Positions 1-18,929 of a stretch of 64,000 nt of DNA are shown one piece after another (position 1 is the stretch's first letter; each line of letters begins with the position of its first letter). Location of the stretch: NCBI RefSeq assembly GCF_046105845.1, contig NZ_CP151004.1. One strand, written 5' to 3'. A program made the translations under genes and the position numbers. The stretch is from Escherichia coli (GTDB taxonomy: Bacteria; Pseudomonadota; Gammaproteobacteria; Enterobacterales; Enterobacteriaceae). Under the pieces are notes generated by a model that was given only the letters and a program-made list of their open reading frames with translations, had not been told where the DNA came from and did not search any database.

Positions 1-205
1 TGTACACAGATGGTGCAATATGTTTGAAAAGATCGGAGTCTATGGGTTAGTTTTTATAGCAAACGTTGTTCTCAACGGCGCTAAAAAACAGACACATTAA
101 AAATGTGGGTAATTATTTTAAAAGAAAATCATATATTAAATAATAATACGAGATATGTTTTCATATTTAGTGTACTGTATACGGCCATTTATACAGGAAA
201 AGCCT

Positions 206-376
206 ATGTCAGAACGTAAAGACTCAAAATCACGCCGTAATTATCTCGTTAAATGTTCCTGCCCAAACTGCACCCAAGAGTCAGAACACAGTTTTTCAAG
301 AGTACAAAAAGGTGCCCTTTTGATCTGCCCTCATTGCAACAAAGTATTCCAGACAAATCTTAAAGCTGTAGCTTGA
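206..376 (+). CDS. Small Cys-rich prophage protein, YnfN/YmcF-like (cold-shock-associated)
   Basis: ORF 155..376; internal ATG at 206 preceded by AGGAAA; product MSERKDSKSRRNYLVKCSCPNCTQ... with CxxC...CxxC; lies beside cspB as in K-12 prophage cold-shock clusters. Confidence 0.6.
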   Translation: MSERKDSKSRRNYLVKCSCPNCTQESEHSFSRVQKGALLICPHCNKVFQTNLKAVA

Positions 377-435
377 TTGATTTTATTCGTAACAAGTATT
401 TTTTATATTTTAATAACATATTTAAAGCAGATAAT

Positions 436-459
436 AAAAAACCCGCCTGAGCGGGTTTA
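436..459. terminator. GC hairpin (cccgc-ctga-gcggg) flanked by A/T runs; bidirectional intrinsic terminator candidate
   Basis: Stem 442-446/451-455; T-run stronger on minus strand (cspB side). Confidence 0.5.
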
Positions 460-739
460 ATATTGTGGTACTTTTTGTGGGAGTCATCCACTTACGCACT
501 TTGTTTTGCTATGCCAGCAGTTAGCTTCTGCTGTAAAACTATTCATGCAGCAAACCTGCACTTCACCACAATGGTTAGCATACTTTTCCTGATTAAGTTA
601 TTGCCAAATATGCTGGCCATTGTTTCATGTATTGGACCTCCTTACTATTTATTAAAGAGATCCAATATTCACCACTCTGTCTGTATCTCCACTCAGGCAT
701 CAGCCTTCTTCGTTATCGTATACAGACAAACTATGAATT

Positions 740-955
740 TTAATCAGTAATTATGACATTTGCTGCTGCAGGACCTTTAGCACCACTCTCTACAGAGAAG
801 GTAACCTTTTGACCTTCAAATAAGGTTCGAAAATTATCATTCTGAATCGCAGAAAAATGCACAAACACATCTTTACTACCATCAACAGGAGAAATAAAGC
901 CAAAACCTTTATCAGCGTTAAACCATTTTACTAAACCAGTCATTTTATTTGACAT
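740..955 (-). CDS. cspB: Cold shock protein CspB (CspA family)
   Basis: 71 aa [38 protein letters not shown]...; canonical RNP1/RNP2 motifs of the CspA family. Confidence 0.9.
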
Positions 956-1255
956 TCTACATTCCTTAACTTGAGCCTTTCGGCATAAATGGCTTGTATA
1001 ACAGAAACGACTTCGTACTTAATTGGAGAGACTCAAAGAAGGAATAAGTGAATAACACCTGAAATGAGAACTGCTTTAGTAAACTACTTCGTATATCGTC
1101 TGTTCTTCAAACCGACGCAATCATTAACGCATAGTTGAACATATGAAGCAATGTTTATTTTAGACATCCAGCCATCTTCAACCCCATCAAAAAACTATAG
1201 CTTTCTTCAGGAACGTGTGTATAGTGCGCCCAGTTATCAGTATTAAGGAATTTTT

Positions 1256-1468
1256 TTGTCCCGTAAAATGACAGGAATTGTCAAAACCTTTGACGGCAAA
1301 AGCGGCAAGGGTCTTATCACCCCATCCGATGGTCGTATCGATGTCCAGCTTCATGTTTCAGCGCTCAATCTCCGCGATGCAGAAGAAATTACCACCGGAT
1401 TACGCGTGGAATTTTGCCGGATAAATGGTCTGCGTGGCCCTTCAGCTGCCAATGTTTACCTTTCATGA
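1256..1468 (+). CDS. cspF: CspF/CspH-like cold shock domain protein
   Basis: 70 aa [26 protein letters not shown]...; TTG start with AAGGAA RBS; divergent from cspB as the cspB-cspF pair in K-12 Qin. Confidence 0.8.
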
Positions 1469-1755
1469 GCTATATTAAAGCTTTAATTTCAGGCCCCATC
1501 GAATCAAACATGGAGAGTTTTCATGAATAACCCCGTCTGTCTTGATGACTGGTTGATTGGCTTTAAAAGCTTATGCTGTACTTTGACCGTAATAGCTCTG
1601 CTAATAATGTAATATGCAGACTCATTGTATCTAGGGACATAGTACTGGAAGAAAACATTTTAAACATCAGGCAAAGTCACCCGATAAATAATAAGTAAAC
1701 AAACATGAATCCCGGAATGAGATTCAACATCTCTATTACCCTATTTAAAGCACAA

Positions 1756-1780
1756 AAACCCGCTCATCAGCGGGTTTTCT
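1756..1780 (+). terminator. Intrinsic terminator hairpin (cccgct-catc-agcggg + ttttct)
   Basis: Perfect 6-bp GC stem followed by T-rich tract. Confidence 0.5.
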
Positions 1781-1883
1781 ACTTTTTCTTAACGTCGGGT
1801 ATATAAAGCCCATCGTTGAAAAAATTTTATCCATATTTTTTGAAAAATGCAAGCATTACGTCGCCATCTTCGGCGAAAATCAT

Positions 1884-2636
1884 TTATCTCGTCACTTTTC
1901 TTAATTGCACCTCAGCATATGCTTCTTCCTGCCAGCACTTTGTAACCAGTTTATCAATGACATCTGCATATCCTTTGTACCACTGATAATCAGTCAGGTC
2001 TGGTACCAGCTTCTGGACATGACACCGCGCCAGTGTCGTTGGTAAACGACTAAACCGGTTTCCATTGCAACGCCCACAAATCTTATAAACAGGCGCGCCA
2101 TGAAGCCGGGTCCTTTTTTCATCCAGGACAATACCTTTACCCTTACACCCTCTGCACGCTGTGCTGACTTCTCCCTTACCATGACAATGCTGACATAGTT
2201 CCTTCACCCACTCTTCCTTGATAACAGACTCCCCGCTTCTGGAGTATTTCACCACTTCGCGCAATACATTATGAAATCCAGTACCAGCACAAGGCTCACA
2301 GCGAGCCTTACTTGCCGCAGACCTGGAATAATCAGCAAAGGCAAAACTCACAAGGTAAGGGATGATCTGTAACCGGATTTCTTCACTCAATTTGTTCAAT
2401 GTCGGGTTATCCAGTGCCATCGCGTAATTGAGCAGACCTTCAATCGCAAACTGAGGATCCTGAACGCCAGCTTTTGCCAGGAATAAGGCAAACCCAAGCG
2501 GTGCTTTCGACTGCACCATCCCCTGCGCAGCCATCACATCCGTAATCGTTAAACCACCTGAGCCTGTCGCCGGTGCGGCATCACTCAATTTTGGAGATTT
2601 TGGGGAGTAATATTTTGGTAAGGCTTCAAGGTTCAT
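1884..2636 (-). CDS. Phage late-gene antiterminator Q (QuuQ-like)
   Basis: 250 aa from internal ATG (MNLEALPKYYSPKSPKLSD...); Cys-rich zinc-binding region CxxC...CxxC; position downstream of replication/nin-like genes. Confidence 0.85.
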   Translation of the reverse strand: MNLEALPKYYSPKSPKLSDAAPATGSGGLTITDVMAAQGMVQSKAPLGFALFLAKAGVQDPQFAIEGLLNYAMALDNPTLNKLSEEIRLQIIPYLVSFAFADYSRSAASKARCEPCAGTGFHNVLREVVKYSRSGESVIKEEWVKELCQHCHGKGEVSTACRGCKGKGIVLDEKRTRLHGAPVYKICGRCNGNRFSRLPTTLARCHVQKLVPDLTDYQWYKGYADVIDKLVTKCWQEEAYAEVQLRKVTR

Positions 2637-2649
2637 GCTCGTTCTCCAC

Positions 2650-3645
2650 TTACGCCAGTACGCCAATTGCCAGCGCACGATCGATAAAACGAAATATCAG
2701 CTCCAGTTGGGAGCCATACTTCTCTTCAAATGTCACGGTATCCGCATGCAGCTCGTCGTGATGCTTTCTGCACAAAGGCAACACAAAGAGATCATGCGCT
2801 TTTGTACCCATTCCACCCTGACCGTGGCCTATCAGGTGGTGGGGATCATCAGCTGGCTTTCCACAACATGCGCACGGCTGCGTCTTAACCCAGCGCGTGT
2901 ACTTTTCATTAACCCAGCGGCGACGTTTGGGGCGTAACATAAAAGACTCCGGCGACTCCGGATCCACTTTCAGCGCCAGCACCTTTTTCGCTTTATCCTG
3001 GATGATGCTGGTGGCAGGAACCGAAGGCACAAGGTCACTTTCCCGGGTGACAGATGGCACAACAGGCTTCGGTAATCTCAGTGCCTTACGGGCTGCACTT
3101 TCCGGTAAGGCATCCGCCAAATCATTACGAACCAGCCACCAGCACAGTTCCGGCATTGTCACAACGTGACTGTCATCAAAACCGAGATCCCGACGCACGA
3201 CAGACAACACCCAGCGGGCACAGTTATCCGTTGCCATTGATTCCAGCCGTTCCGTGAACTGGTCACGCAGCTGGTTATCGCAGTGCCAGCACAGACGAAT
3301 TGCTCCCGGAGCGTGCCGCATTGTGGTCATGTTCTCGCTGTGCCAGTCGGAATGAGGCCACTGACAGCCCTTTTCACGAAGTAACCAGCTTTCAAGACAT
3401 TCCACGCCACCAGCACGACGGATCACTGCCTCATTGCGGAACACGGCCCGAACGGCAGGATCATCCGCCAGCGGTTGTGATGCCGCCGGAACGGCACCAC
3501 TGGCGAAAGATGAATAACGTTCCGGCTCAGGCTCCAGCAGGACACGCCCCTGCATAAACAGGGGCATCAGCTCTGAACCTGGCCTGAACAATACAATCCC
3601 CATACGCGGGGCAATTTCAGGGGTCAGTAGTGCTCTCACGGTCAC
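2650..3645 (-). CDS. Prophage protein with HNH-like motif (YdfU/DUF968-like)
   Basis: 331 aa; C-terminal CACCGKPADDPHHLIGHGQGG...HDLFVLPLCRKHHDELH resembles HNH nuclease signature. Confidence 0.7.
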   Translation of the reverse strand: MTVRALLTPEIAPRMGIVLFRPGSELMPLFMQGRVLLEPEPERYSSFASGAVPAASQPLADDPAVRAVFRNEAVIRRAGGVECLESWLLREKGCQWPHSDWHSENMTTMRHAPGAIRLCWHCDNQLRDQFTERLESMATDNCARWVLSVVRRDLGFDDSHVVTMPELCWWLVRNDLADALPESAARKALRLPKPVVPSVTRESDLVPSVPATSIIQDKAKKVLALKVDPESPESFMLRPKRRRWVNEKYTRWVKTQPCACCGKPADDPHHLIGHGQGGMGTKAHDLFVLPLCRKHHDELHADTVTFEEKYGSQLELIFRFIDRALAIGVLA

Positions 3646-3646
3646 C

Positions 3647-4444
3647 TCAATGAACGGTATCGAGCAGCTTTAACAGCTCAGGGAATCGGGATTCGAAGAA
3701 ATGCGGCTGCGTCTCGCGCGGATTTGCAGGACTGGTGATGTTCTTGCCGAACATGCAGCCTTTCGCCGTCAGCGACCAGAATTTTTTGATGTTGTTAATC
3801 GCGGTACGGCTGTATCGTTCGCGTTGTTCAACGATCCCCAGCTTCACCATCTGGTGATATGCCTGATTAGCCGTCAGGCGGATACCATACTGCCTCAGCA
3901 GTGCACTCAGAGACAGCGTGGGGCGACTTGAGCCATCGTGTGCATCAGCAGGAGCATCAATGGCATAGCGCGGTGCCAGATTCGGTAAGCCAACAGCCTC
4001 CTGGAGTTTCTGGCAGGCACCAAGCACTGAAGAGTTAGACAGGTTTAATTCCCGGCGCATAAAGTCCAGCAGAATCACACCAGCCTGCATCTTGTCAGCA
4101 GCCTGTCCGGATAATTTTTCCGGTGCGCTGGTTACCATGTCGAAAGTACGGATCACCTTCAGATGGAATGACGGGCTGATCCACATTGCATAGGCATACA
4201 CCAGTTCTTTGCAGACATACGTCCCCTGGTTATTTCCGCCACGAATAACGTTAACTGGCTCTATATTGACCGAGTTGCAAATCTGCAACTCGCTTATTAA
4301 ACGCTCAGTTTGCTCATTGCGGAGCCAGAATGCGGGCTTATGCTTATCCAGAGAACCAGCAGCCCTGTGCAGATCGTTCAGGCTGTAACGCCCATAAGCA
4401 TCACGACGAACTTCAATACCATCAATAACCATCAGATTATTCAT
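3647..4444 (-). CDS. KilA-N domain-containing prophage protein
   Basis: 265 aa; N-terminal VIDGIEVRRDAYGRYSLNDLHRAAG typical of KilA-N/APSES-type DNA-binding domain. Confidence 0.7.
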   Translation of the reverse strand: MNNLMVIDGIEVRRDAYGRYSLNDLHRAAGSLDKHKPAFWLRNEQTERLISELQICNSVNIEPVNVIRGGNNQGTYVCKELVYAYAMWISPSFHLKVIRTFDMVTSAPEKLSGQAADKMQAGVILLDFMRRELNLSNSSVLGACQKLQEAVGLPNLAPRYAIDAPADAHDGSSRPTLSLSALLRQYGIRLTANQAYHQMVKLGIVEQRERYSRTAINNIKKFWSLTAKGCMFGKNITSPANPRETQPHFFESRFPELLKLLDTVH

Positions 4445-4463
4445 ACTTCGTTTCTCCTCTTAA

Positions 4464-4853
4464 TCAGGCGGCTGCACCCGCCGTTTTCTCGTACTTACTG
4501 ATAGTGATCTCGACCTTCCCTTCCGGGATAACCGGTCCCCACTCCACCAGCATTCTTTTCACCTGACTGTCGTCTTCCCACACACCCGCGTGGGTCAGGG
4601 CGTCAAACAGCGCCTTGTTATAGTTGTCCAGATCGCGGATCCGGTTATCCGGAGGAAACAACACGATCTCCACTGAAGCAGGTGCCGACGTTGGTTTTGG
4701 CAGACGACGTAACTGCTCAAATATTGCTGCACACGCCGCGCTCTGGAATTTGCGCCCCGCCGCGCTTATCAGGCTCTTACCAGCAAACGCCCCTTTGTTG
4801 GGGTGTCGCCAGTACGTGTTCACGCTGGGCGGGAAAGGCAGGATCAGCTTCAT
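4464..4853 (-). CDS. rusA: RusA-family Holliday junction resolvase
   Basis: 129 aa; RusA-like motifs (RDLDNYNKALFDALT...); typical lambdoid nin-region location. Confidence 0.85.
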   Translation of the reverse strand: MKLILPFPPSVNTYWRHPNKGAFAGKSLISAAGRKFQSAACAAIFEQLRRLPKPTSAPASVEIVLFPPDNRIRDLDNYNKALFDALTHAGVWEDDSQVKRMLVEWGPVIPEGKVEITISKYEKTAGAAA

Positions 4854-5209
4854 ACTTTCAGGCCCCTCTCATGTAACCAGTGGGCTGCACGCAGTCTGGC
4901 GTTTTCCTCACCGGCAAGCAGTGCGCGGATAATCCCGGCTGCCTCGCTGTCGTCGTCCTTCACTGTGGTATGAAGCGTGATACCCCGGGCCACGCCACGC
5001 TTTATCGTGATGACGCCTTTTTTCTCCAGTGCGCGAAGATGCTCCACCGCTGCATTCACCGAACGGTATCCCAGCATGGCTGCCACCTCCTGATTGGTTG
5101 GCGGGAAACCACGTTCTTTCTGATAAGAAATCAGCATATCCAGCACCTGCTGCTGGCATTGAGTTAACGTCGTCATTAAGCCCACACGTAATTCCCTGAC
5201 AGATACCAC
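4850..5209 (-). CDS. LexA N-terminal-domain-like DNA-binding protein (no peptidase domain)
   Basis: 119 aa; LTQCQQQVLDMLISYQKERGFPPTNQEVAAMLGYRSVNAAVEHLRALEKKGVITI closely resembles the LexA winged-helix DNA-binding domain. Confidence 0.6.
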   Translation of the reverse strand: MVSVRELRVGLMTTLTQCQQQVLDMLISYQKERGFPPTNQEVAAMLGYRSVNAAVEHLRALEKKGVITIKRGVARGITLHTTVKDDDSEAAGIIRALLAGEENARLRAAHWLHERGLKV

Positions 5210-5664
5210 TCATCACCCGATACAGCGCGCTTGCTGCTTTTCCGTAAGCACCGCTCACGGCGCGCCAGAAAATTGTTTCGTTCTGACTGGGAGTGGCTTT
5301 CACGGAATGCCGCCATCCACACGGTTGCAGCACGACGGTATAAGCCCCTGGACTCCAGTTCTTCAGCCTGGCGGGTCAGGCACAAAATTACCCGGGGATC
5401 GTTAGTGCCGACATAGAAATTGCGCACAGGTCTGGTTTCACGAACTGGTTGTGGTTCCGGCTCCTGCGCTCTCTCAGTCAGGCGCGGGAAATGTCTGCGT
5501 GTATTTCCTTCACAACGGTGAGCCACACGCCCACTCTGACGTAACTTGCTTGCTGACTGCAGAACGCGCTGCCGTGAGTAACCTGCAAAAGCATCTGCAA
5601 TGTCTCCGGAAGTACACCCCGGATGGGCTTCAATGAATTTCTGAACTTCATTCAAAAGACTCAT
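5176..5664 (-). CDS. PerC/Pch-family-like transcriptional regulator
   Basis: 162 aa; C-terminal LESRGLYRRAATVWMAAF matches the conserved PerC-family RRAA..W motif (from memory). Confidence 0.5.
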   Translation of the reverse strand: MSLLNEVQKFIEAHPGCTSGDIADAFAGYSRQRVLQSASKLRQSGRVAHRCEGNTRRHFPRLTERAQEPEPQPVRETRPVRNFYVGTNDPRVILCLTRQAEELESRGLYRRAATVWMAAFRESHSQSERNNFLARRERCLRKSSKRAVSGDEWYLSGNYVWA

Positions 5665-5666
5665 GA

Positions 5667-6485
5667 TTACCCCCTGAATCCTGCCGGGATCTGGCTGTAG
5701 TCCACGTTGTCGTAACTGGCTTTGAAGTACGGGTCCTCGCGTCTGGCTGCAGATACCGCAGGAACTTCCCAGGATTCTTCGAAATGACGATCCGGACCAA
5801 AGAACGTGACAGCCTGTTTCACAAATTGTGTGCCGCTGTTACCCATCGCAGATACCCAGCCCGCGTAGCGTTTCACACCTTCCAGCATGGTTTCGGGTTT
5901 TACCCCCTCATTCAAACGGGCTTTCCAGGCTTTGAAGGCTGCAGATTTTGAATTGCCACCAGCACGTTTGGGGTATGCCAGCCATGCCTGCTCAAACTCC
6001 GGAGAGTATTCCGGTCGGTTTGAACGAACTCGCACAGACTCATCAGCAGATGCACCAACAGCTATTGGTTCATTGACTGGTTCTTTGACTGGTTCAAAAG
6101 AGTGACTGGTTCTGGGTGAATCTCCTGCACCACCCCCTGGTGCAACTCCTGCACTACCTGGTGAATTTGCTGCACCAGATAGTGAATTATTTGCACTACC
6201 CCCTAGTGAATCTCCTGCACCATCAAGATGAAGGAGATAGATATTACTTGAGTTACCTTTTTCACCTTTCCGGGTGACTTTTTTTACCAGCCCGGAATCA
6301 CAAAGGGCCGCAATATGATTCATCACAGAACGTTTGCTAATCTCGCACTGGTCAGCAATATGCTGGTAGCTGGGCCAGCACTCACCCTGATCGCTGGCAT
6401 TATCAGCCAGCTTGATCAGAACCAGTTTTCGCAATGGATTACCCACTCGAATTTTCATCGCTTTAACCATCAGCTCCATACTCAT
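5667..6485 (-). CDS. Phage replication initiation protein (O-like) with DnaT-like C-terminus
   Basis: ORF 5667..6524 (TTG); likely ATG start at 6485 overlapping upstream stop; N-terminal winged-helix, Gly/Ser/Pro-rich linker encoded by iterons, C-terminal ...YSQIPAGFRG like host DnaT. Confidence 0.7.
   Translation of the reverse strand: MSMELMVKAMKIRVGNPLRKLVLIKLADNASDQGECWPSYQHIADQCEISKRSVMNHIAALCDSGLVKKVTRKGEKGNSSNIYLLHLDGAGDSLGGSANNSLSGAANSPGSAGVAPGGGAGDSPRTSHSFEPVKEPVNEPIAVGASADESVRVRSNRPEYSPEFEQAWLAYPKRAGGNSKSAAFKAWKARLNEGVKPETMLEGVKRYAGWVSAMGNSGTQFVKQAVTFFGPDRHFEESWEVPAVSAARREDPYFKASYDNVDYSQIPAGFRG
6074..6222. repeat. Iteron array (putative prophage replication origin) inside replication gene
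   Basis: Three copies of tgactggttc (6074, 6086, 6103) then five ~18-bp repeats related to ggtgaatctcctgcacca starting at 6115, 6139, 6160, 6181, 6205 (21-24 bp period). Confidence 0.6.
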
Positions 6486-6718
6486 GCTGCACCTCCGAGA
6501 TGCTTCATGTTTTTTCCGGAGCAAAAGGCTATAAGCGGCATACTGATGCGGTAATTACGGCCCAGCGGTTCACAAATCACCTTCTGACATTCACGGTCAA
6601 CCAGGCTAACACGTAGAACATGCCCTGCAGGCGTGGTGTACCACTGCCCAACTGTAGGAATTGATGTTTTTTTACGCTGAAGCAAACGGCAAATATTGAG
6701 GATCAACGGATTAAGCAT
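6482..6718 (-). CDS. Hypothetical prophage protein
   Basis: 78-aa ORF translationally coupled (ATGA overlap) to the replication gene. Confidence 0.45.
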   Translation of the reverse strand: MLNPLILNICRLLQRKKTSIPTVGQWYTTPAGHVLRVSLVDRECQKVICEPLGRNYRISMPLIAFCSGKNMKHLGGAA

Positions 6719-7547
6719 GACGATGCCCTCCGCTGATATTCAGGAGACGGTGAATATGAAAATTAGCCTTATCCGCCAGACGAATACGTTCAGCCTGCAA
6801 GTTAAGAAGGGTTTCTACCAAAACCTGATGCGCCTGCGGATCCGAAAGAGTTACCTTGCGCAGAGCACGTAGTGCAGTTGTTACATAACTGAGTTTATGT
6901 AAGTCTTCATCATTCAGACGAGTGAGGGCTGGGACAGTAGCCATGATGGCAGCCTCCGATAACAGTGAATTACCTTCACCACCGGAAACGCCAATTTCGC
7001 TGGTGGTGAACTGAACGGGGTTGGCGTAACCGGCGTTATCGGAAACCGGCGCACCTTTCGGTGCCCCCGTCCAGCCCACCATAATTTGGGTGTGCACAGA
7101 CACAGACGATAAAAAAGACGCTGGCGCGTCATATATCGCCGATAACATTTCCAGGACGCCAATCCCGTCACCCGCTTTATAAGGTGCCTGAACAGTGTAA
7201 CGTCCCGGAATGGCAGAATCAATGTGCTGGTGGTCCTTCACACTCAACAAAATCACGCCTGAATTTCCACAAAGGACTAAAGCACTCATGCGGGTAGTCT
7301 TTGCGAAGATAGATAACGCGCTGTGTTTCTGGTTCCCAACGAATAACATGGACATAAAGCCCTCTTCCGTCACGAAACCAGCGGTTAAGTTCCCGCACAA
7401 CTCGCCCCCCACAGTCAGGTAAAGTTCTCTGTGGTTACTTACAGCCAGGTGATTTGGTAATCTGCATTCATGCCGTAACAACAGGTGTTCAGCGACACTG
7501 ACCACCAGCTGTTGCGACAAACGGTTATTTGCCGTTAAACTGTTCAT
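6711..7547 (-). CDS. Hypothetical prophage early-region protein
   Basis: 278-aa ORF in the cro-side early operon; no motif recognised. Confidence 0.55.
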   Translation of the reverse strand: MNSLTANNRLSQQLVVSVAEHLLLRHECRLPNHLAVSNHRELYLTVGGELCGNLTAGFVTEEGFMSMLFVGNQKHSALSIFAKTTRMSALVLCGNSGVILLSVKDHQHIDSAIPGRYTVQAPYKAGDGIGVLEMLSAIYDAPASFLSSVSVHTQIMVGWTGAPKGAPVSDNAGYANPVQFTTSEIGVSGGEGNSLLSEAAIMATVPALTRLNDEDLHKLSYVTTALRALRKVTLSDPQAHQVLVETLLNLQAERIRLADKANFHIHRLLNISGGHRHA

Positions 7548-8107
7548 GCGTTAGTTTCTCCACAGACACAAAACGCCACGACGCCCGGAGCTGCACACTC
7601 GCGGGCGTCACTCTTTTCTGGAGCGCAAAAGATTTTGTAGACCAGTGCTGCATGCTCTTGGAGCTTCGAAATTGACAGATACAACTCATCATTAATTGCT
7701 GTCTGCTCGTGTGGCTCCACGACCCCATCTTCGATTGCCGAACGAATCTGCTTTGAGTAATTCCCGATCTGTTCGATGACTTCCAGCAGGCGCTGGTTTA
7801 TATCGGCGTTCTCTACTTCCTCAATTTCAGGAAGCGATACGAACACCCCACCAGCAGACTGTGCGACAGCATCCGCAATGTAGTGAGTGTCAGCCGCGCG
7901 CTGTAAAACCATTGCCCATCCCAGCGGGAAAATCTGATCGCCATCGGCACGAAGGCGGTTAAATAATGCGTTCTCTGTTACATCCAGCCAGTCAGCTGCT
8001 TCAGCGTAACCACCCGGCAACGCTGCGATAGTTTTTCTGACAGCTTTCACGTACCACTCAGGCTGTTTTTCTACTTTCCAGTGATACTTACCCACGGTTA
8101 GCCTCAT
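7544..8107 (-). CDS. Hypothetical prophage regulatory protein (cII position; possibly YdaT-like)
   Basis: 187-aa ORF immediately downstream of cro-like gene. Confidence 0.5.
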   Translation of the reverse strand: MRLTVGKYHWKVEKQPEWYVKAVRKTIAALPGGYAEAADWLDVTENALFNRLRADGDQIFPLGWAMVLQRAADTHYIADAVAQSAGGVFVSLPEIEEVENADINQRLLEVIEQIGNYSKQIRSAIEDGVVEPHEQTAINDELYLSISKLQEHAALVYKIFCAPEKSDARECAAPGVVAFCVCGETNA

Positions 8108-8138
8108 CGTTCTGTGGTTAAAAATTGAAGGTGTTCTG

Positions 8139-8339
8139 TTAATCTTTCGGATAGATATCCGGTCTTAAGTCAGATTTCGTAATTGCACCTGACGTGCATT
8201 GCTCAAGTTTTTTCGCCAGCACAAAACTGGCTTTTTTATAACCATTGAAAACCAGCCGTAAGTAGCCAGGTGTTGAGCCAACTTTTCCGGCCAACTCGCC
8301 CTGCTGTTCTTTGGTTAAAGAGTCCCAATACGCTTTCAT
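8139..8339 (-). CDS. Cro-like HTH regulator
   Basis: ORF 8139..8444; probable start at internal ATG 8339 (MKAYWDSLTKEQQGELAGKVGSTPGYL...); divergent from repressor gene. Confidence 0.6.
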   Translation of the reverse strand: MKAYWDSLTKEQQGELAGKVGSTPGYLRLVFNGYKKASFVLAKKLEQCTSGAITKSDLRPDIYPKD

Positions 8340-8394
8340 ACAATATGTACCTCCAGTATACATATTACATGATTGAAATGAACCTTCAAGATAC

Positions 8395-8413
8395 TTGTAC
8401 CTTATCGGTACAA
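8395..8413. promoter_or_regulatory. Putative operator palindrome in cro/cI intergenic region
   Basis: TTGTACC-ttatc-GGTACAA perfect 7-bp inverted repeat between divergent cro-like and cI-like genes. Confidence 0.35.
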
Positions 8414-8429
8414 AGGTTTTAATTTCGTT

Positions 8430-9104
8430 ATGAAAACAATCCATGACATCCGGCGGTCTAACGCCAGAAAACTGAGAGATGGTGTTGGCGGAAATTCATC
8501 CTTTGCCACCATGATTGATCGCGAGCCAACCCAAACCAGCAGGTTTATGGGGGATGGCGCTACTAAAAATATCGGTGACAGCATGGCACGGCACATCGAA
8601 AAATGTTTCGACCTGCCTGTCGGATGGCTTGATCAAGAACACCAGACAACGAACATCACAAAAAAACCTGATGTTTCAATCACTAACAAACAAATAACGT
8701 TAGTCCCTGTCATATCATGGGTACAGGCCGGAGCATGGAAAGAAGTTGGCTATTCTGAGGTTGATTTGAGCACAGCAGAAACGTATCCCTGCCCTGTACC
8801 CTGTGGCGAAATGACTTATATCTTGCGGGTGATTGGTGATTCAATGATTGATGAGTACCGCCCTGGAGACATGATTTTTGTTGATCCCGAAGTCCCTGCC
8901 TGCCACGGTGACGACGTTATTGCATTGATGCACGATACAGGCGAAACCACCTTCAAGCGATTGATAGAAGATGGAACACAGCGTTATCTCAAAGCATTAA
9001 ACCCAAACTGGCCTGAGCCTTACATTAAGATTAACGGTAATTGCTCTATAATTGGTACAGTGATTTTCTCGGGAAAACCAAGAAGATACACAATAAAGGC
9101 CTAA
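8430..9104 (+). CDS. CI-like prophage repressor (HTH + S24 LexA-type peptidase domain)
   Basis: 224 aa; C-terminal LRVIGDSMIDEYRPGDMIFVDPE ... FKRL resembles S24 Ser/Lys autoprotease. Confidence 0.85.
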   Translation: MKTIHDIRRSNARKLRDGVGGNSSFATMIDREPTQTSRFMGDGATKNIGDSMARHIEKCFDLPVGWLDQEHQTTNITKKPDVSITNKQITLVPVISWVQAGAWKEVGYSEVDLSTAETYPCPVPCGEMTYILRVIGDSMIDEYRPGDMIFVDPEVPACHGDDVIALMHDTGETTFKRLIEDGTQRYLKALNPNWPEPYIKINGNCSIIGTVIFSGKPRRYTIKA

Positions 9105-9118
9105 TCAATATTTATGAA

Positions 9119-9139
9119 CCTGCTTCGGCAGGTTTTTTT
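9119..9139 (+). terminator. Rho-independent terminator after repressor gene
   Basis: cctgc-ttcg-gcagg followed by TTTTTTT. Confidence 0.7.
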
Positions 9140-9772
9140 ATACTTGACAATGTACCTATGAGATACATAATGTATCCAAAAGAAACATGAGGCAGGCAAG
9201 ATTCAAACAAAATTTGGTTGTAACACGGCGTATGGCACATGCGTCGTTAGCGGTCTGGGGACGTTAAAGGGGACAATCCACTCCTTGCTAGGGCAAACAA
9301 ACCAGGTAGCCGGAATGTGCAAGTCAATGATGATGCTGATAAGACGCCTAACCAGCGTGGCGATCCGGTTTGACGCCTGGGAAGAGACCAGGGTGCAACG
9401 ATGAGGGCATTTATGGAGCCGCGACAAAGTGTGGTGCCGTAACTGGCTAAGTGCTCTCAGCGTTGTGGTCATCCGCGAAATGGCGCGGCGGTAAGTATGG
9501 CTGGGTTACTCTTTCCCCGTTGAGGACACCGGATTGTCAGGTTGACCATACGCCTGAGTGACAACCCCACCACAACAGCCACTGCTTTGGCGGTACCAGT
9601 TTGTACACTTGCTTCCGGCTGGTACCGCTCTTTTTACAAAACAGAGAAGAGCATCACCGGACGACGGGCTCATAACCCAATCCATCCGGGCGGCTGCCAC
9701 CGCAGGTGTTCTTCTCTGTTTTGTGGAGAAACCAACCGACCTTGCAGGGTCGATATGATGAGGAGCAGCAAA

Positions 9773-10135
9773 ATGGCTAGCGAACGCAGTACTGATGTGC
9801 AGGCATTTATCGGGGAGCTGGACGGCGGCGTATTTGAAACCAAAATCGGCGCAGTTCTCAGTGAAGTCGCTTCCGGTGTGATGAACACGAAAACCAAAGG
9901 TAAGGTCTCACTCAACCTGGAAATCGAACCATTTGATGAGAACCGTGTGAAAATCAAACACAAACTCTCATATGTTCGCCCGACTAACCGCGGGAAAATT
10001 TCCGAAGAAGACACCACCGAAACGCCGATGTATGTCAATCGCGGTGGTCGCCTGACTATTCTGCAGGAAGACCAGGGACAATTACTGACTCTTGCCGGTG
10101 AACCTGACGGAAAACTACGCGCAGCAGGTCATTAA
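9773..10135 (+). CDS. Hypothetical prophage protein (YfdP-like)
   Basis: 120 aa from ATG 9773 with GAGGAG RBS (MASERSTDVQAFIGELDGG...). Confidence 0.55.
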   Translation: MASERSTDVQAFIGELDGGVFETKIGAVLSEVASGVMNTKTKGKVSLNLEIEPFDENRVKIKHKLSYVRPTNRGKISEEDTTETPMYVNRGGRLTILQEDQGQLLTLAGEPDGKLRAAGH

Positions 10136-10200
10136 TATCGTTCTTAATTAACTGATTATTTATCTCATCACTGAATATCTTTATATAGTGAGGACTTATT

Positions 10201-11025
10201 ATGTCTCAGAACTTAGACGCAACCGCAATTAATCAAATCCATGCCCTTATTTCTGCTCAGGGTGTTAATGAAATTATCAGTAAGATTGGTGCCGATGCTG
10301 TGGTATTGCCTGAGAATTTCCGCATTCATGATCTGGAAAAATTTAATTTAAATCGCTTCCGTTTCCGTGGTGCGCTTTCCACTGCCAGCATCGATGACTT
10401 TACCCGTTATTCTAAAGATCTTGCAGATGAAGGCACCCGCTGCTTTATCGATGCTGATAATATGCGTGCCGTCAGTGTACTTAACCTGGGTACTATTGAT
10501 GAACCAGGTCACGCAGATAACACCGCCACTCTCAAACTGAAAAAGACAGCACCGTTCTCTGCCCTGTTGTCTGTTAACGGCGAGCGTAACTCCCAGAAGT
10601 CACTGGCAGAATGGATTGAAGACTGGGCCGACTACCTTGTGGGCTTTGATGCTAATGGTGACGCTATTCAGGCAACAAAAGCGGCTGCGGCAGTCCGTAA
10701 AATCACGATTGAAGCAAACCAGACCGCTGATTTTGAAGATAATGACTTCAGCGGCAAACGCTCCCTGATGGAATCTGTCGAAGCGAAGACCAAAGACATT
10801 ATGCCAGTGGCATTTGAAATTAAATGCGTTCCGTTTGAAGGTCTGAAAGAACGTCCGTTTAAATTACGCCTCAGCATTATCACTGGCGATCGTCCTGTAC
10901 TGGTTCTGCGCATTATTCAGCTGGAAGCGGTGCAGGAAGATATGGCTAACGAATTTCGTGATCTGCTTGTTGAGAAATTCAAAGACAGCAAAGTAGAAAC
11001 CTTTATTGGTACTTTCACCGCCTGA
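10201..11025 (+). CDS. yfdQ: YfdQ-like prophage protein
   Basis: 274 aa [24 protein letters not shown]...; matches my recollection of K-12 CPS-53 YfdQ. Confidence 0.75.
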
Positions 11026-11152
11026 TTTCATTACTGCAAATGCCCCTGCGGGGGCATTTATGGAAACGTAATTAACTCAATAATCACCGGATGGTGAGGG
11101 CTTCCTTTTACCCAAACTCAGCGCGGTGCAGCGCATATACGTGGAGAACAAA

Positions 11153-11689
11153 ATGTCATTTATTAAAACTTTTTCCGGGAAGCATTTTTATTATGACAAG
11201 ATAAATAAAGACGACATCGTGATTAACGATATCGCGGTTTCCCTTTCAAATATCTGCCGCTTTGCCGGTCATCTTTCTCACTTCTACAGTGTCGCCCAAC
11301 ATGCGGTGCTTTGCAGCCAGCTGGTGCCGCAGGAATTTGCTTTTGAAGCGTTAATGCATGATGCAACAGAAGCGTATTGCCAGGATATTCCCGCTCCACT
11401 GAAACGCCTTCTTCCTGACTATAAACGGATGGAAGAAAAAATTGACGCCGTAATCCGTGAGAAATACGGGTTACCCCCAGTTATGAGTACGCCCGTGAAA
11501 TATGCCGATCTTATCATGCTGGCAACCGAACGCCGCGATCTCGGGCTTGATGATGGCTCTTTCTGGCCTGTACTGGAAGGCATCCCGGCAACAGAGATGT
11601 TCAACGTGATTCCACTGGCACCTAGCCATGCCTACGGGATGTTTATGGAACGTTTTAACGAGTTATCGGAGTTACGCAAATGCGCATGA
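11153..11689 (+). CDS. yfdR: YfdR-like HD-domain phosphohydrolase
   Basis: 178 aa from internal ATG (MSFIKTFSGKHFYYD...); HD motif region ...HFYSVAQHAVLCSQL... Confidence 0.75.
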   Translation: MSFIKTFSGKHFYYDKINKDDIVINDIAVSLSNICRFAGHLSHFYSVAQHAVLCSQLVPQEFAFEALMHDATEAYCQDIPAPLKRLLPDYKRMEEKIDAVIREKYGLPPVMSTPVKYADLIMLATERRDLGLDDGSFWPVLEGIPATEMFNVIPLAPSHAYGMFMERFNELSELRKCA

Positions 11690-12042
11690 ATGTTTTCGAA
11701 ATGGAAGGGTTTCTTCGCGGTAAATGTGTACCGCGAGATCTGAAAGTGAACGAAACAAATGCTGAGTACCTGGTACGTAAATTCGACGCGCTTGAAGCTA
11801 AATGTGCGGCACTGGAAAACAAAATAATACCAGTGTCAGCTGAACTGCCACCAGCAAATGAAAGTGTTCTGTTATTTGATGCTAACGGAGAAGGCTGGCT
11901 GATTGGCTGGCGTTCTCTCTGGTACACCTGGGGACAAAAAGAAACCGGAGAATGGCAGTGGACATTTCAGGTCGGGGACCTTGAAAACTTCAATATCACT
12001 CACTGGGCAGTAATGCCAAAAGCGCCGGAGGCTGGAGCATAA
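11680..12042 (+). CDS. yfdS: YfdS-like prophage protein
   Basis: 120-aa ORF overlapping yfdR end. Confidence 0.65.
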   Translation: MRMNVFEMEGFLRGKCVPRDLKVNETNAEYLVRKFDALEAKCAALENKIIPVSAELPPANESVLLFDANGEGWLIGWRSLWYTWGQKETGEWQWTFQVGDLENFNITHWAVMPKAPEAGA

Positions 12043-12662
12043 TGACCACATTTACCAATAAAGAACTGATTAAAGAAATCAAAGAACGAATCAGCAGCCT
12101 AGAGGTTCGAGACGATATTGAGCGCCGTGCTTATGAAATTGCTCTGGCATCGCTAGAAGAGGAGCCGGTGGCATGGCTGCATTCAGAAAATGGCTTAGGT
12201 ATTCCGGCAATAACGAGGAGTAAAAACATTGCTGACAGTTGGTTATCAAAGGGCTGGTATGTTCAGCCGCTATATATAGCCAAGCCAGTGCCGGTGGTGC
12301 CAGATGCTCGTCCGTCTTTAAATAATGGCATAGTCGGCTTTGATGAAGGCTGGAACGCCTGCCGCGCCGCCATGCTTAATGGTGCCGAACCTGTAAGCCA
12401 GACTTACAAGTTGAACGAGCTGTCGGGCAACTCTCCGGTAACTCCGGATGGTTGGATAAGCTGTAGTGAGCGAATGCCGAACGATAAACAGTATGTTTGG
12501 TGTTGGGGTAAGTCTTACGGCTGGACTGAGTACGATACCTTCGAAGGGTATTACGATTGTTCGAGAAACAAATGGTGGGCAGTTACTGACAATGGGGAAG
12601 AACCGGCATCGAAAGTAACCCACTGGATGCCGCTACCGGAGCCGCCGCAGGAGGTGAAGTAA
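12042..12662 (+). CDS. YfdT-like prophage protein
   Basis: 206-aa ORF, contiguous with yfdS-like gene. Confidence 0.65.
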   Translation: MTTFTNKELIKEIKERISSLEVRDDIERRAYEIALASLEEEPVAWLHSENGLGIPAITRSKNIADSWLSKGWYVQPLYIAKPVPVVPDARPSLNNGIVGFDEGWNACRAAMLNGAEPVSQTYKLNELSGNSPVTPDGWISCSERMPNDKQYVWCWGKSYGWTEYDTFEGYYDCSRNKWWAVTDNGEEPASKVTHWMPLPEPPQEVK

Positions 12663-12856
12663 TGAACAACTTAATGACAACTAAACAAGTCGCCGATTTC
12701 TGTGGTGTTTCAGTATCGACAGTTCTTCGCTGGAACAGCGTAAACAGGAGAACTGGCCAGAAATACAGGCCTGACTTTCCAGATCCTGATATTAAATCCT
12801 GCCCAAATAAATGGGCATCACACAAGATTTACAGATTTGCGGGAGTGATTGATTAA
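12662..12856 (+). CDS. AlpA/excisionase-family small DNA-binding protein
   Basis: 64 aa; TKQVADFCGVSVSTVLRW helix-turn-helix; located next to integrase module. Confidence 0.7.
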   Translation: MNNLMTTKQVADFCGVSVSTVLRWNSVNRRTGQKYRPDFPDPDIKSCPNKWASHKIYRFAGVID

Positions 12857-13138
12857 TATGTATTAGCTTAGATGTGAGCTGACACATCTATGATTAGATG
12901 CCAAACCAAATCTGAGCGTCCACTCTTTAACAAGAGCGGACGTTACCAATGACCATATGACATGAATCGATAAGATCAAAACATTATCGCCAAGAAATGT
13001 CATACCATTGATACAAATAAAATTGATTACCCCCTTACTCTTGTTGAAAAGTTAGTCGTAGAGTACCTATCGCAATGTAATCAGCTTTAATCATCTGAAA
13101 ATTACTCCTTAAAAATTAGCTTTTATATACTGAACAAA

Positions 13139-13858
13139 TTAAATCTCTGTTTCTTTTCCTGTTCGGCTCAACCAATACTCCATTGTTTGAGTATGAATCT
13201 TTTCAGCGTATATTTTATCAATTAATTTATCTCGTTTTTCTTTAATGACTTTACGCAGTGAATCATATAACATAAAAAAACGTTCATCATCTTCCTCATT
13301 ATTACCATAATTTATTTGATTGAGTTCTGAAAAAATATGATAGCACCTTTTTTTCTTGGTCCCCGGCAATATTAAAACCAAGCCACATTGATCATATTCA
13401 AATTCACCTTTATGGGCAGCAAAGTTATGTCTAACATTCATAATAGAATCATGTAAATCTCTGTATTTTTCTGGCACATGCTTTCTCTGCAATGTGAATC
13501 GACGCCCTTTCGCCTCTGTAAAACACTTACCGTAAGTAACAACTTTTGATATAAATAAAGACTTTAATATTAGATTCTTTTCTAAATCAGGATAAATAAA
13601 GTGTTGTTCTCTATTAATGTTATTACAAATGTTTTTTATTATATTCTCCCAACCAATAACATTCCGAAGATCTTTATCCAGCAACTGTAAGGCCACATAT
13701 TGTTCTACAAAGCGGCCTTTTAAAGGTATTCGTGGTAATATTACACCTTTCTGCTTATAAACTCTTTCTATCGTATTATCTGGATATTGGATCTTCCTTA
13801 TTTCTATTCCGTCTTCTTCTGATACCCTTACTAATGGTTCATTTTTTAACTTTGACAT
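13139..13858 (-). CDS. Hypothetical AT-rich prophage cargo (moron) protein
   Basis: 239-aa ORF in low-GC segment between excisionase and integrase; no confident motif. Confidence 0.7.
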   Translation of the reverse strand: MSKLKNEPLVRVSEEDGIEIRKIQYPDNTIERVYKQKGVILPRIPLKGRFVEQYVALQLLDKDLRNVIGWENIIKNICNNINREQHFIYPDLEKNLILKSLFISKVVTYGKCFTEAKGRRFTLQRKHVPEKYRDLHDSIMNVRHNFAAHKGEFEYDQCGLVLILPGTKKKRCYHIFSELNQINYGNNEEDDERFFMLYDSLRKVIKEKRDKLIDKIYAEKIHTQTMEYWLSRTGKETEI

Positions 13859-14143
13859 GTTAACCCTCTTAAATAAAAAACTAACTTTATCCAGATAGTG
13901 TCCGTTAAGAAGTTTTCGTTACAACTAAGTTTCTAGGTAAATCATGAATCAACCTATAGTATCAAAAACATTTGGTGGTAAACATCTGCATTTATCAAAT
14001 AGCAGGAGCGATTTAGGGGCATAGGGATAGTGATGATATCTATACCCGTGCCCTCTTATGTCAACACAATGGCGTAAACTTAACGCTCACATCTCGCTCA
14101 AAGTGTGCTAGGAGATTTGGTTATGTTCAGGTGATACAAACCG

Positions 14144-15367
14144 TCAGTTTGAATCAGAGATAGTACAATTAACAATCGATTCAACCCTCTTCCACCATGC
14201 CAGGTAAGCTTTACGCTGTTCTTCTAGATAATCGCTCTTATCATAAACTTGCCATACCCCTGGCAGCTTATGACCAAGCATAATTTCTGCGATATGAGGC
14301 GCAGTAAGATCAGAAAAATTTGTTCGTGCTGTCCGTCTCAAGTCATGAAGAGACCAATGAGGGAATTGATATCCTAAACGCCGCCACGCGTACTGCATTA
14401 AATTGTAAGGCAGCGACTGTAATGATGTCCTACCGACTGGCTCCCTGCTTCCTTCCTTAGTAAAAAGCATATCGGAACCGTTGTTCATAGAGATAACGTA
14501 TTTTATAAGCTCTTCAACCGGTTCAATAATGGGCCGCTTTAGCGGTTCGCCTGTTATGTCCCCTGTCTTATGTCGTTCAGGTGGTACAGTCCATACCTTA
14601 TTTATGAAATCAAAATCACCCACCCTAGCAGTAATTAGCTCCGAACTACGGCAACCAAAATGCAGTAATAGTTTAATGAAGGCCCGGTATTTGGGAACCA
14701 TTCTAGAGCCATCGATCGCAGCATAAAGAATTTTAATTTCATCGTGTGTCAGAAACCGTTTCTTCTGACCTTTACGGATATCCATATCTTTACCCGTGAT
14801 ATCCGACAGCGGGCGAGTTTCAATAAGCTTTCTCTTATACGCCCAGACATGGGCCTGCTTTGCGTTAATTAGCAATCGGTCTGCTATTGCTGGAGTCTTA
14901 GTGCTAAGAGGCTCCAGGACTTCTAACCAATCATGCAATGTAGCTGCATCGTGAGGGATATTCCCGATTTTAGAGAACAGGTGCAGCTCAAACGAGCGGA
15001 GTATCTGTTCAGAACCCTTTTTATTTTTTACACAATATGCTTCATACCAGGCACGGATCACAGACTCTACCGTCATGGCTTCAGTAGCTTTTCGTTTTTC
15101 AGCCTGCTTGACCAATCGTGGATTACGGTTTGACTCGAGTTCACCACGGAGACGGATAACTTCTTCTCTGGCCTCTTTTAATCCAGTTGCCGGGTAAGTT
15201 CCGATATCAAGACGCTCACCTTTCCCTGCCCATTGATAACGATATTGAAACACTACGCGACCTTTCGGTGATACTCTGACAGACAGACCATCACGATCGG
15301 ATTTAACCAAAACCTTATCACGTTCCTTTCCAACGACTGAACGCAACCACGCATCAGACAGCGCCAT
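14144..15367 (-). CDS. Tyrosine-type phage integrase
   Basis: 407 aa; C-terminal catalytic region ...HDLRRTARTNFSDL...GHKLPGVWQVY... typical of tyrosine recombinases. Confidence 0.9.
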   Translation of the reverse strand: MALSDAWLRSVVGKERDKVLVKSDRDGLSVRVSPKGRVVFQYRYQWAGKGERLDIGTYPATGLKEAREEVIRLRGELESNRNPRLVKQAEKRKATEAMTVESVIRAWYEAYCVKNKKGSEQILRSFELHLFSKIGNIPHDAATLHDWLEVLEPLSTKTPAIADRLLINAKQAHVWAYKRKLIETRPLSDITGKDMDIRKGQKKRFLTHDEIKILYAAIDGSRMVPKYRAFIKLLLHFGCRSSELITARVGDFDFINKVWTVPPERHKTGDITGEPLKRPIIEPVEELIKYVISMNNGSDMLFTKEGSREPVGRTSLQSLPYNLMQYAWRRLGYQFPHWSLHDLRRTARTNFSDLTAPHIAEIMLGHKLPGVWQVYDKSDYLEEQRKAYLAWWKRVESIVNCTISDSN

Positions 15368-15587
15368 TACTCACCTTGTACAAATCGCAAAACACCTCTG
15401 CTGCTTTGTACATTATGTACAAGCATATGTACAGATTTTTGATGAAAGCAACCTGATCGATTTAAAGTTACATGAAAGAATTTTCAATTAAAGAAGCCAC
15501 ATAACTATATGTATTTAAATGAGTTATATAACCAGACCTCAATTAACTGAAAGGATTTTGAAAGAGTAAAAGAGCTTTAATTTGGGA

Positions 15588-15662
15588 TTAATTATTGGGG
15601 TGAGAAATAATGGCAAAAGTGCGGCGCTTCGCCACCTCTTGCAAATAAGGAGACAACGTCAT
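15588..15662 (-). pseudogene. prfC: prfC 5' fragment (first 22 codons) truncated at prophage junction
   Basis: Minus-strand translation [22 protein letters not shown] then NN-stop; matches RF3 N-terminus, diverges just before the GTPase P-loop. Confidence 0.75.
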
Positions 15663-18606: not shown

Positions 18607-18693
18607 GCGAAGGTGGCGGAATTGGTAGACGCGCTAGCTTCAGGTGTTAGTGTCCTTACGGACGTGGGGGTTCAAGTCCCCCCCCTCGCACCA
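18607..18693 (+). tRNA. leuQ: tRNA-Leu (CAG)
   Basis: 87 nt GCGAAGGTGGCGGAATTGGTAGAC...CTTCAGGTG...CCTCGCACCA; anticodon loop CTTCAGGT (CAG); encoded CCA. Confidence 0.95.
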
Positions 18694-18721
18694 AAAACCA
18701 CGTTGATATTGCTCGCACTGG

Positions 18722-18808
18722 GCGAAGGTGGCGGAATTGGTAGACGCGCTAGCTTCAGGTGTTAGTGTTCTTACGGACGTGGGGGTTCAAGTCCCCCCCC
18801 TCGCACCA
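18722..18808 (+). tRNA. leuP: tRNA-Leu (CAG), one variable-arm substitution vs flanking copies
   Basis: 87 nt; identical to copy 1 except C-to-T at 18769. Confidence 0.95.
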
Positions 18809-18842
18809 AACGAGGCGATATCAAAAAAAGTAAGATGACTGT

Positions 18843-18929
18843 GCGAAGGTGGCGGAATTGGTAGACGCGCTAGCTTCAGGTGTTAGTGTCCTTACGGACG
18901 TGGGGGTTCAAGTCCCCCCCCTCGCACCA
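18843..18929 (+). tRNA. leuV: tRNA-Leu (CAG)
   Basis: 87 nt; identical to copy 1. Confidence 0.95.

Follow-up and report, generated by a model that had tools for sequence, protein, structure and literature searches.

A conserved, AT-rich gene between excisionase and integrase

The 64,000-nucleotide stretch of Escherichia coli DNA analyzed here (contig NZ_CP151004.1; hereafter the window) carries part of a lambdoid prophage, in which a reverse-strand gene for a protein of 239 amino acids (aa) lies between the genes for an excisionase (xis) and a tyrosine integrase (int), close to the junction with the chromosome (Table 1). This gene, its product and the protein family to which the product belongs are the subject of the present analysis. 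The open reading frame (ORF) had been singled out in an earlier, sequence-only reading for its low guanine-plus-cytosine (GC) content and its position between xis and int, in an orientation opposite to the yfdQRST block. Its coordinates, the drop in GC content and the identity of its neighbors are all confirmed here, and so is its orientation, the yfdP/Q/R/S-DUF551 block being on the forward strand and the gene on the reverse.

The GC content of the gene is 0.312 (0.25 at third codon positions, GC3), with 0.488 for the whole window; along the gene it stays at 0.30-0.32, compared with 0.43-0.55 in the flanks. Low GC content (0.31-0.35) is also seen in the orthologs from Cronobacter and Leclercia, which share 83-85% protein identity with the E. 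coli protein. The ORF is a real gene under purifying selection: comparison with these orthologs gives a ratio of nonsynonymous to synonymous substitution rates (dN/dS) of 0.05-0.12, at a synonymous divergence (dS) of 0.6-1.8. The exact protein is found on at least 1000 public contigs, and 70 of 5426 complete E. coli genomes carry the gene. Every source annotates the protein as "hypothetical", and a literature search for its accession, WP_000040219.1, returned nothing. It is a cytoplasmic protein with an isoelectric point (pI) of 9.15 and neither a signal peptide nor a transmembrane segment.

The prophage itself has a close relative in culture. Positions 1-15639 of the window form a single collinear match, at 99.5% identity, to Escherichia phage 2H10 (NC_049950, 42329 down to 26690), an isolated temperate phage of the genus Glaedevirus; its gp29, encoded between gp28 and gp30, is identical to the 239-aa protein.

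Table 1. Features of the xis-int region of the prophage (window positions)
Feature	Position	Strand	Evidence or remarks
Solo HEPN-like coding sequence, 239 aa	13139..13858	-	ATG-start ORF; WP_000040219.1; phage 2H10 gp29; PHROG 8440
Codons of R143-H-N-F-A-A-H149, predicted HEPN Rx4-6H catalytic motif	13412..13432	-	conservation; end of helix 3 in the AlphaFold2 model
Shine-Dalgarno sequence AAGAGGG, strong, 5 nt 5' of the ATG	13864..13870	-	direct sequence reading; kept in the Cronobacter and Leclercia orthologs
Excisionase gene, convergent with the 239-aa gene	12662..12856	+	phrog_1553, E 6e-36; 2H10 gp30 'excisionase'
Tyrosine integrase gene, co-oriented, immediately upstream of the 239-aa gene	14144..15367	-	phrog_1, E 5e-74; RefSeq; 2H10 gp28
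Intergenic region from int to the gene, 285 bp, without a terminator-like site	13859..14143	-	
Non-coding block upstream of the gene and mobile with it, also present in the Cronobacter cassette	13935..14015	-	blastn 71% over 93 nt; MAFFT alignment
Spacer between the gene and xis, phage backbone, with hairpins and a non-conserved 19-codon mini-ORF	12857..13138	.	outside the mobile cassette
Prophage/chromosome (att) junction, approximate, beside yjjG	15639	.	end of the 2H10 match

A family defined by an invariant R-x5-H motif

In PHROGs, the protein matches phrog_8440, a family of unknown function. A word-indexed search with the protein found 25 clusters, from Enterobacterales only. An exhaustive phmmer search, in which matches with E up to 1e-3 were counted as family, found 498 representative clusters, nearly all of 220-260 aa. 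Environmental Vibrio, Acinetobacter, Marinobacter and others also have members of the family. A word-indexed search with the family profile brought in no further annotated relatives, and a scan of genome contigs yielded no confirmed locus.

Conservation was assessed in an alignment of 103 diverse members, with a mean column identity of 26%. Five residues are invariant in this set (D63, Y109, R119, H136 and R143) and eight more are conserved in at least 90% of the members (L59, W70, K111, F113, A148, H149, G151 and L197). That seven polar residues (D63, Y109, K111, R119, H136, R143 and H149) are invariant or nearly so at about 25% identity indicates the presence of an active site. The sequence-only reading had drawn attention to a weak R-x5-H motif (RHNFAAH, residues 143-149) that could be either HEPN-like or due to chance; this motif proves to be the most conserved feature of the family and lies at the position at which the HEPN motif is expected. 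Among the full-length representatives, 144 of 149 show the pattern R[HN]xxxAHxG and four of the other five retain R-x5-H, giving 148 of 149 with both the arginine and the histidine; in every motif variant listed, the residue that follows the arginine is histidine or asparagine. A competing, HKD-type reading of the segment AHKGEFEYD was rejected, as K150 is conserved in the closest clade only.

Searches of curated family models gave little. HEPN_AbiU2 (PF18734) is the only Pfam family matched by more than two members, at sub-threshold scores in three of the 103 (best i-Evalue 5.6e-3), and the E. coli protein itself does not match it. The sequence-only reading had also suggested a search with defense-system models. 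Here the outcome was negative: PADLOC matched no system, PADLOC-DB 2.0 returning zero families for the 239-aa protein at E up to 1, and ten diverse relatives gave a single weak partial match, to PDC-M66B.

A predicted HEPN-type fold

A fold search, likewise suggested by the sequence-only reading, was made with a structure that AlphaFold2 predicted from the alignment of the family. The model is a confident one, with a mean predicted local distance difference test score (pLDDT) of 86.5 and a predicted TM score (pTM) of 0.75. It consists of a four-helix bundle (residues 49-79, 92-111, 130-148 and 188-221) to which are added an N-terminal three-stranded beta-sheet (residues 9-36) and a beta-hairpin (residues 157-180). 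Residues 112-129 are non-helical and form an insert between helices 2 and 3 that contains a conserved CFTEAKGRRF block. R143 is positioned within the last two turns of helix 3, and H149 is the first residue past its end.

A survey of the HEPN superfamily (PMC3710099) gives as its criteria an Rx4-6H motif and an all-alpha core of four helices in an up-down bundle; it also describes the residue following the motif arginine as typically N, D or H, and inserts between helices 2 and 3 as a mark of HEPN bundles. All of these hallmarks are found in the model, namely an Rx4-6H motif at the end of helix 3, a polar residue after the arginine, a four-helix up-down bundle and an insert between helices 2 and 3.

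When the model was compared with solved structures in the PDB using Foldseek, nothing significant was found. The same search against AFDB50 gave 227 matches at E up to 1e-3, and all of the annotated ones among the top 50 are HEPN families, as labeled in the database's own entry descriptions. A Cthe-2314-like HEPN protein is matched at 32% identity, E 7e-18 and TM 0.83-0.85; Apea-like HEPN proteins at E 1e-10 and TM up to 0.78; AbiU2-like HEPN proteins at E 8e-9 and weaker, several of them at 1e-8 to 1e-7; and an AbiV protein at E 5e-7 (probability 1.00 for all four groups). 'HEPN domain-containing' entries are also present. We conclude that the 239-aa protein very probably belongs to the HEPN superfamily. 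It is a family of its own, outside AbiU2, ApeA, AbiV, HepT and HepS.

These results also bear on the alternative that the protein is a non-catalytic helical bundle, or a lysogenic-conversion or virulence factor, whose resemblance to HEPN is convergent. Such a protein would match no curated HEPN model significantly, as is the case here, and a virulence role would agree with the frequency of the gene in avian-pathogenic and clinical E. coli. However, seven polar residues that are invariant or nearly so at about 25% identity are hard to reconcile with a non-catalytic bundle, and the motif agrees with that of HEPN proteins in spacing, in the residue that follows the arginine and in structural position. 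The protein is, moreover, cytoplasmic and lacks both a signal peptide and transmembrane segments, and the environmental Vibrio, Acinetobacter and Marinobacter members show that the family is not tied to pathogens. We therefore regard this alternative as improbable.

A solo gene that moves among unrelated elements

The gene and its homologs are found in mobile elements of very different types. In the lambdoid prophage, as in phage 2H10, the gene lies downstream of a long integrase gene that is transcribed away from the attachment-site (att) junction, with a gap of 285 bp between the two genes. In P2/186-like prophages (of Enterobacter, Citrobacter, Yersinia and others), the homolog is the last gene of the cI-int operon, 140-250 bp from an att core consisting of a partial tRNA, and in two of these clades its first 17-20 nt overlap the end of int. 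The 85% ortholog in Cronobacter is located after the tail fiber and umuDC genes of a siphovirus prophage, at the opposite prophage end. An E. coli phage-plasmid has a homolog between its lysis genes and HNH/terminase, and a filamentous Vibrio phage (inovirus) has one in its accessory region, where the annotator's note reads 'endonuclease'. On a conjugative element, the homolog adjoins a gene of Schlafen/AlbA_2 type.

Clustering of all adjacent ORFs at 46 loci from 16 sequence clades revealed no universal partner gene, and in the same set no adjacent gene for an MNT nucleotidyltransferase is conserved. The neighbors that do recur are int (six clades), umuC (four clades) and a small protein of the umuDC module. 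When the E. coli, Cronobacter and Leclercia cassettes are aligned, the shared, mobile DNA is seen to consist of the ORF and about 170 bp upstream of it, with similarity ending at the stop codon. Because recent work identified lactococcal AbiV as a type III toxin that needs an adjacent RNA antitoxin (abiV2), we also looked for an RNA flanking the gene; there is no Rfam match and there are no tandem repeats. The fold z-score of the upstream block is not significant (-1.06), and that of the downstream spacer is -2.59, in a spacer that is not conserved with the cassette. As there is neither a recurring partner gene nor a conserved flanking RNA, we consider the gene to be solo.

Several candidate partners were examined and set aside. 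Two neighbors of about 370 aa are unrelated. A small upstream protein of 79-104 aa belongs to a phage umuDC-like module. A recurring downstream segment of about 130 bp, considered as a possible RNA partner, is the 3' half of a tRNA (...CACCA) with a terminator, that is, the att core; in the P2-like prophages it lies at 8893-9031 of locus L005, 7959-8088 of L008, 6856-6997 of L039, 6884-7029 of L042 and 6946-7085 of L045, and, as the other half of the tRNA is missing, ARAGORN does not call it. Inheritance of int and the gene as one module was ruled out, since the lambdoid and P2/186-like integrases are unrelated (E 0.25).

In several siphovirus prophages, a module of the small protein, umuD and umuC (SOS mutagenesis-like) stands at the prophage end, directly before the homolog (loci L019-L021, L034, L036, L039 and L040). 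Only the small protein and an umuD fragment remain at L010 and L022. The copies of the homolog on viral contigs L037 and L038 are truncated or frameshifted.

The absence of a conserved partner is central to the question of whether the prophage might be stabilized by a toxin-antitoxin or addiction module in which the protein is the toxin and the antitoxin is an unrecognized one, either a small RNA (like that of the type III AbiV1/AbiV2 pair) or a tiny adjacent ORF. Many HEPN proteins are indeed toxins of such modules (HepT/MntA and RnlA/RnlB, for example), the structural neighbor AbiV has recently been shown to depend on its adjacent RNA, and just downstream of the gene there is both a 19-codon ORF preceded by AAGGAG and a spacer that is moderately structured (z -2.59). 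However, the similarity between cassettes stops at the stop codon, so that the mini-ORF and the spacer do not travel with the gene. In the P2-like prophages the gene can begin within the end of int, and the sole conserved downstream element is the partial-tRNA att core. With no recurring partner in 16 clades, no tandem repeats, no Rfam match and an upstream z-score of -1.06, we consider this explanation quite unlikely.

The recurrence of int beside the gene raises a different alternative, in which the protein would be an accessory of integration or excision that is functionally tied to the integrase. Both in the window and in six clades of P2/186-like prophages, the gene directly follows int and has the same orientation, and the 17-20 nt overlap in two of those clades points the same way. 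Yet the two types of integrase are unrelated, close orthologs are located far from any integrase gene (after umuDC, between lysis genes and terminase, in the inovirus and on the conjugative element), and about 90% of the prophages with this integrase are without the 239-aa gene. Nor is the predicted fold a DNA-binding or Xis-like one. An integrase accessory is thus highly improbable.

The xis-int slot is a defense hotspot

The sequence-only reading had described the interval between xis and int as a cargo or moron site, and this description holds up well in sister prophages. Complete E. coli genomes that carry this type of integrase number 699, about 420 have the DUF551-xis module and the 239-aa gene is present in 70. 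The contents of the interval were compared in a sample of nine sister prophages, all integrated at this same site next to yjjG (loci L047-L055). Three of them carry known anti-phage systems: AbiU in FY10 (PADLOC, 5e-67 and 6e-28), Borvo (BovA) in O121 RM8352 (1e-174 and 9e-49) and an anti-phage dCTP deaminase in 1303 (1e-163). Two more give weak PADLOC matches, the DUF4365 protein of 2014C-3061 (Aga_REase, 9e-9; PDC-M02A, 9e-5) and the 646-aa TPR protein of MB98 (PDC-M02A). The remaining cargo has no PADLOC match: a 331-aa hypothetical protein in S88, hypothetical proteins of 436 and 81 aa in 2013C-3492 and of 160 and 150 aa in O145 RM12367, and, in DETEC-S792 (L050), the 239-aa gene itself, cut by IS1 at residue 227 with its last 12 residues replaced. 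The slot between xis/DUF551 and int in yjjG-integrating lambdoid prophages (window 12857-14143) is thus a hypervariable defense hotspot.

Association with defense genes is also seen elsewhere in the family. On viral contig L040, the homolog follows a umuC-like gene and lies between a full-length gene for the PADLOC candidate PDC-S42 (1e-90) and a TIR/ThsB-like PDC-S66 gene (2e-25); these flanking genes, at 3035-3961 and 8223-8999, make up with it a small defense cluster at the prophage end. The int-att region of P2, where the P2/186-like homologs lie, has been reported as a hotspot in the literature.

Residence in a hotspot must nevertheless be weighed against the possibility that the gene benefits the phage, as an RNase or RNA-binding protein that serves in host takeover, in lytic RNA turnover or in counter-defense against host immunity. 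Anti-defense genes are also found in variable phage hotspots, the carriers are phages of very different types, and the HEPN-type features of the protein would suit this role as well as they suit defense. On the other hand, membership of the cI-int lysogeny operon in P2/186-like prophages implies expression in the lysogen, the gene is also found on a conjugative element, and the identifiable alternative occupants of the slot are defense systems rather than anti-defense genes. We therefore judge a phage-serving function to be rather unlikely.

Expression signals and other features of the prophage

The upstream block that travels with the gene is presumably its own promoter region, and a promoter scan of the spacer between int and the gene found no consensus sigma-70 site. 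No terminator-like site separates int from the gene, so transcription may also continue into it from int.

The left edge of the window falls within the prophage, at the lysis region, and the structural genes are therefore outside the window, beyond this edge. Between int and yjjG, RefSeq has a pseudo-coding sequence of 69 bp ('incomplete hypothetical protein') that spans the boundary of prophage and chromosome, at about 15594-15662 of the window (20995-21063 of L001). All of the sister prophages examined have it too, and it may be what is left of the integration target. The gene of the YfdQ family (10201-11025, 274 aa) is intact in the window and annotated as frameshifted in strain BEN2908 (L001 15604-16426). 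The DUF551 gene (12042-12662) is likewise intact here, with pseudogene fragments in BEN2908 and other strains. A local GC peak of 0.54 at 9200-9800 falls in an unannotated gap between a CI-like repressor gene (8430-9104) and yfdP, in which the 2H10 annotation places a 64-aa 'Phage protein' on the reverse strand (9506-9700). Three tandem tRNA-Leu(CAG) genes at 18607-18929, downstream of rsmC, belong to the ordinary chromosomal context.

A candidate single-gene HEPN RNase for phage defense

When a family of HEPN type is found in a hotspot slot that also holds known anti-phage systems, the most likely role for the gene is that of a single-gene phage-defense factor. The explanation that we favor, with somewhat better than even confidence, is that the 239-aa protein is a self-contained single-gene HEPN RNase that would be held latent and would block infecting phages, in a family distinct from HepS and ApeA.

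Several observations weigh against this explanation. Neither the 239-aa protein nor any of ten diverse relatives has a significant match in Pfam, NCBIfam or PADLOC, and sequence searches of the PDB, with the single protein and with the 103-member profile, returned only noise and no solved structure. Several other occupants of the slot are without an identified function, and prophage morons can be virulence or fitness genes. The upstream E-x3-[KR] motif that is present in many HEPN families, with its conserved acidic residue placed in helix 2 (PMC3710099), has a counterpart here in an E/D-x3-R motif (consensus IEKDLR, D61 to R65, with the invariant D63), which is however in the first long helix. 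Finally, the protein is linked to HEPN by the motif, the position of the motif and the names of AFDB entries.

In the mechanism that we propose, by analogy with HepS and ApeA, the RNase activity, dimerization, latency, trigger, RNA target and defense phenotype are all features that we infer. The small, basic, cytoplasmic protein, in which a HEPN-type bundle would be combined with the N-terminal beta-sheet and the beta-hairpin, would be expressed in the lysogen and kept catalytically latent there; transcription could start in the upstream region of the gene, continue from int or, in P2-like phages, cover it as part of the cI-int operon. A cue from an infecting phage would then activate it. In a homodimer like those of other HEPN enzymes, the two R143-x5-H149 motifs would be brought together to form a metal-independent RNase site, with H136, D63, Y109 and R119 probably assisting catalysis, and cleavage of tRNA, rRNA or phage RNA would abort or block the infection. 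The pI of 9.15 and the lack of membrane segments fit a cytoplasmic RNA-binding enzyme of this kind.

The closest functional precedent is HepS (STM14_3211), a solo HEPN abortive-infection protein of the Salmonella prophage Gifsy-1, a latent tetramer that siphovirus tail-tip proteins switch on to cleave the anticodon loops of tRNAs (PMC13043305). Like HepS, the 239-aa protein is a single small protein of HEPN type whose gene occupies an accessory site in a lambdoid prophage; it has a canonical Rx4-6H motif and no partner or inhibitor gene. In contrast to HepS, in which the motif is Rx4H at residues 100-105, it has Rx5H at residues 143-149, together with the N-terminal beta-sheet, the beta-hairpin and further invariant residues. 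Sequence searches with the protein and the profile, in a copy of the PDB whose inclusion of the deposited HepS crystal structure is unconfirmed, matched no chain. A second precedent is offered by ApeA (bioRxiv 10.64898/2026.03.20.713152), a homodimeric single-gene HEPN sensor-RNase that has about 600 aa, a large sensor domain at its N terminus and the motif RNKITH (Rx4H). The two have in common one protein with one HEPN domain, a homodimer (predicted for the 239-aa protein) and the combination of sensing with RNase activity (proposed for it). They differ in length, 239 aa as opposed to about 600 aa, and the 239-aa protein and its ten relatives match no PADLOC model of known systems.

Among named families, the closest are AbiU2-like (PF18734) and Cthe_2314-like HEPN, both of which are listed as bacterial HEPN families that conserve Rx4-6H (PMC3710099); Pfam matches to them are sub-threshold or absent, and neither family has a characterized mechanism. 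AbiV resembles the protein in being a small HEPN abortive-infection protein of similar size and a Foldseek neighbor (E 5e-7), but no conserved RNA flanks the 239-aa gene, and the motif histidine, which is typically absent in AbiV (PMC3710099), is conserved in this family. Unlike the type II system HepT/MntA, the gene has no MNT nucleotidyltransferase gene or other conserved neighbor, and its product is about 100 aa longer than HepT, with added beta elements.

A more specific proposal, in which we place about even confidence, is that PHROG 8440 constitutes an unnamed anti-phage system. Its members would be compact HEPN RNases (about 240 aa) in which a beta-sheet serves as a built-in sensor and the invariant site is enlarged (D63, Y109, K111, R119, H136, R143 and H149), encoded by a one-gene AT-rich cassette of siphoviruses, P2-like myoviruses, inoviruses, phage-plasmids and conjugative elements, with a trigger and target possibly unlike those of HepS and ApeA.

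Solo HEPN defense proteins are well precedented, and what is new here is a large, compact, unnamed family. If the explanation that we favor is correct, this family of about 500 clusters, which PADLOC, Pfam and NCBIfam miss, would join the single-gene HEPN immune proteins. The other hypothetical proteins of the slot (in S88, 2013C-3492 and O145 RM12367) are defense candidates in their own right. Because the isolated phage 2H10 carries the identical gene, it provides an easily tested example, and the protein, with its small size and extra invariant residues, would be attractive as a minimal system in which to study how solo HEPN proteins are kept latent and triggered.

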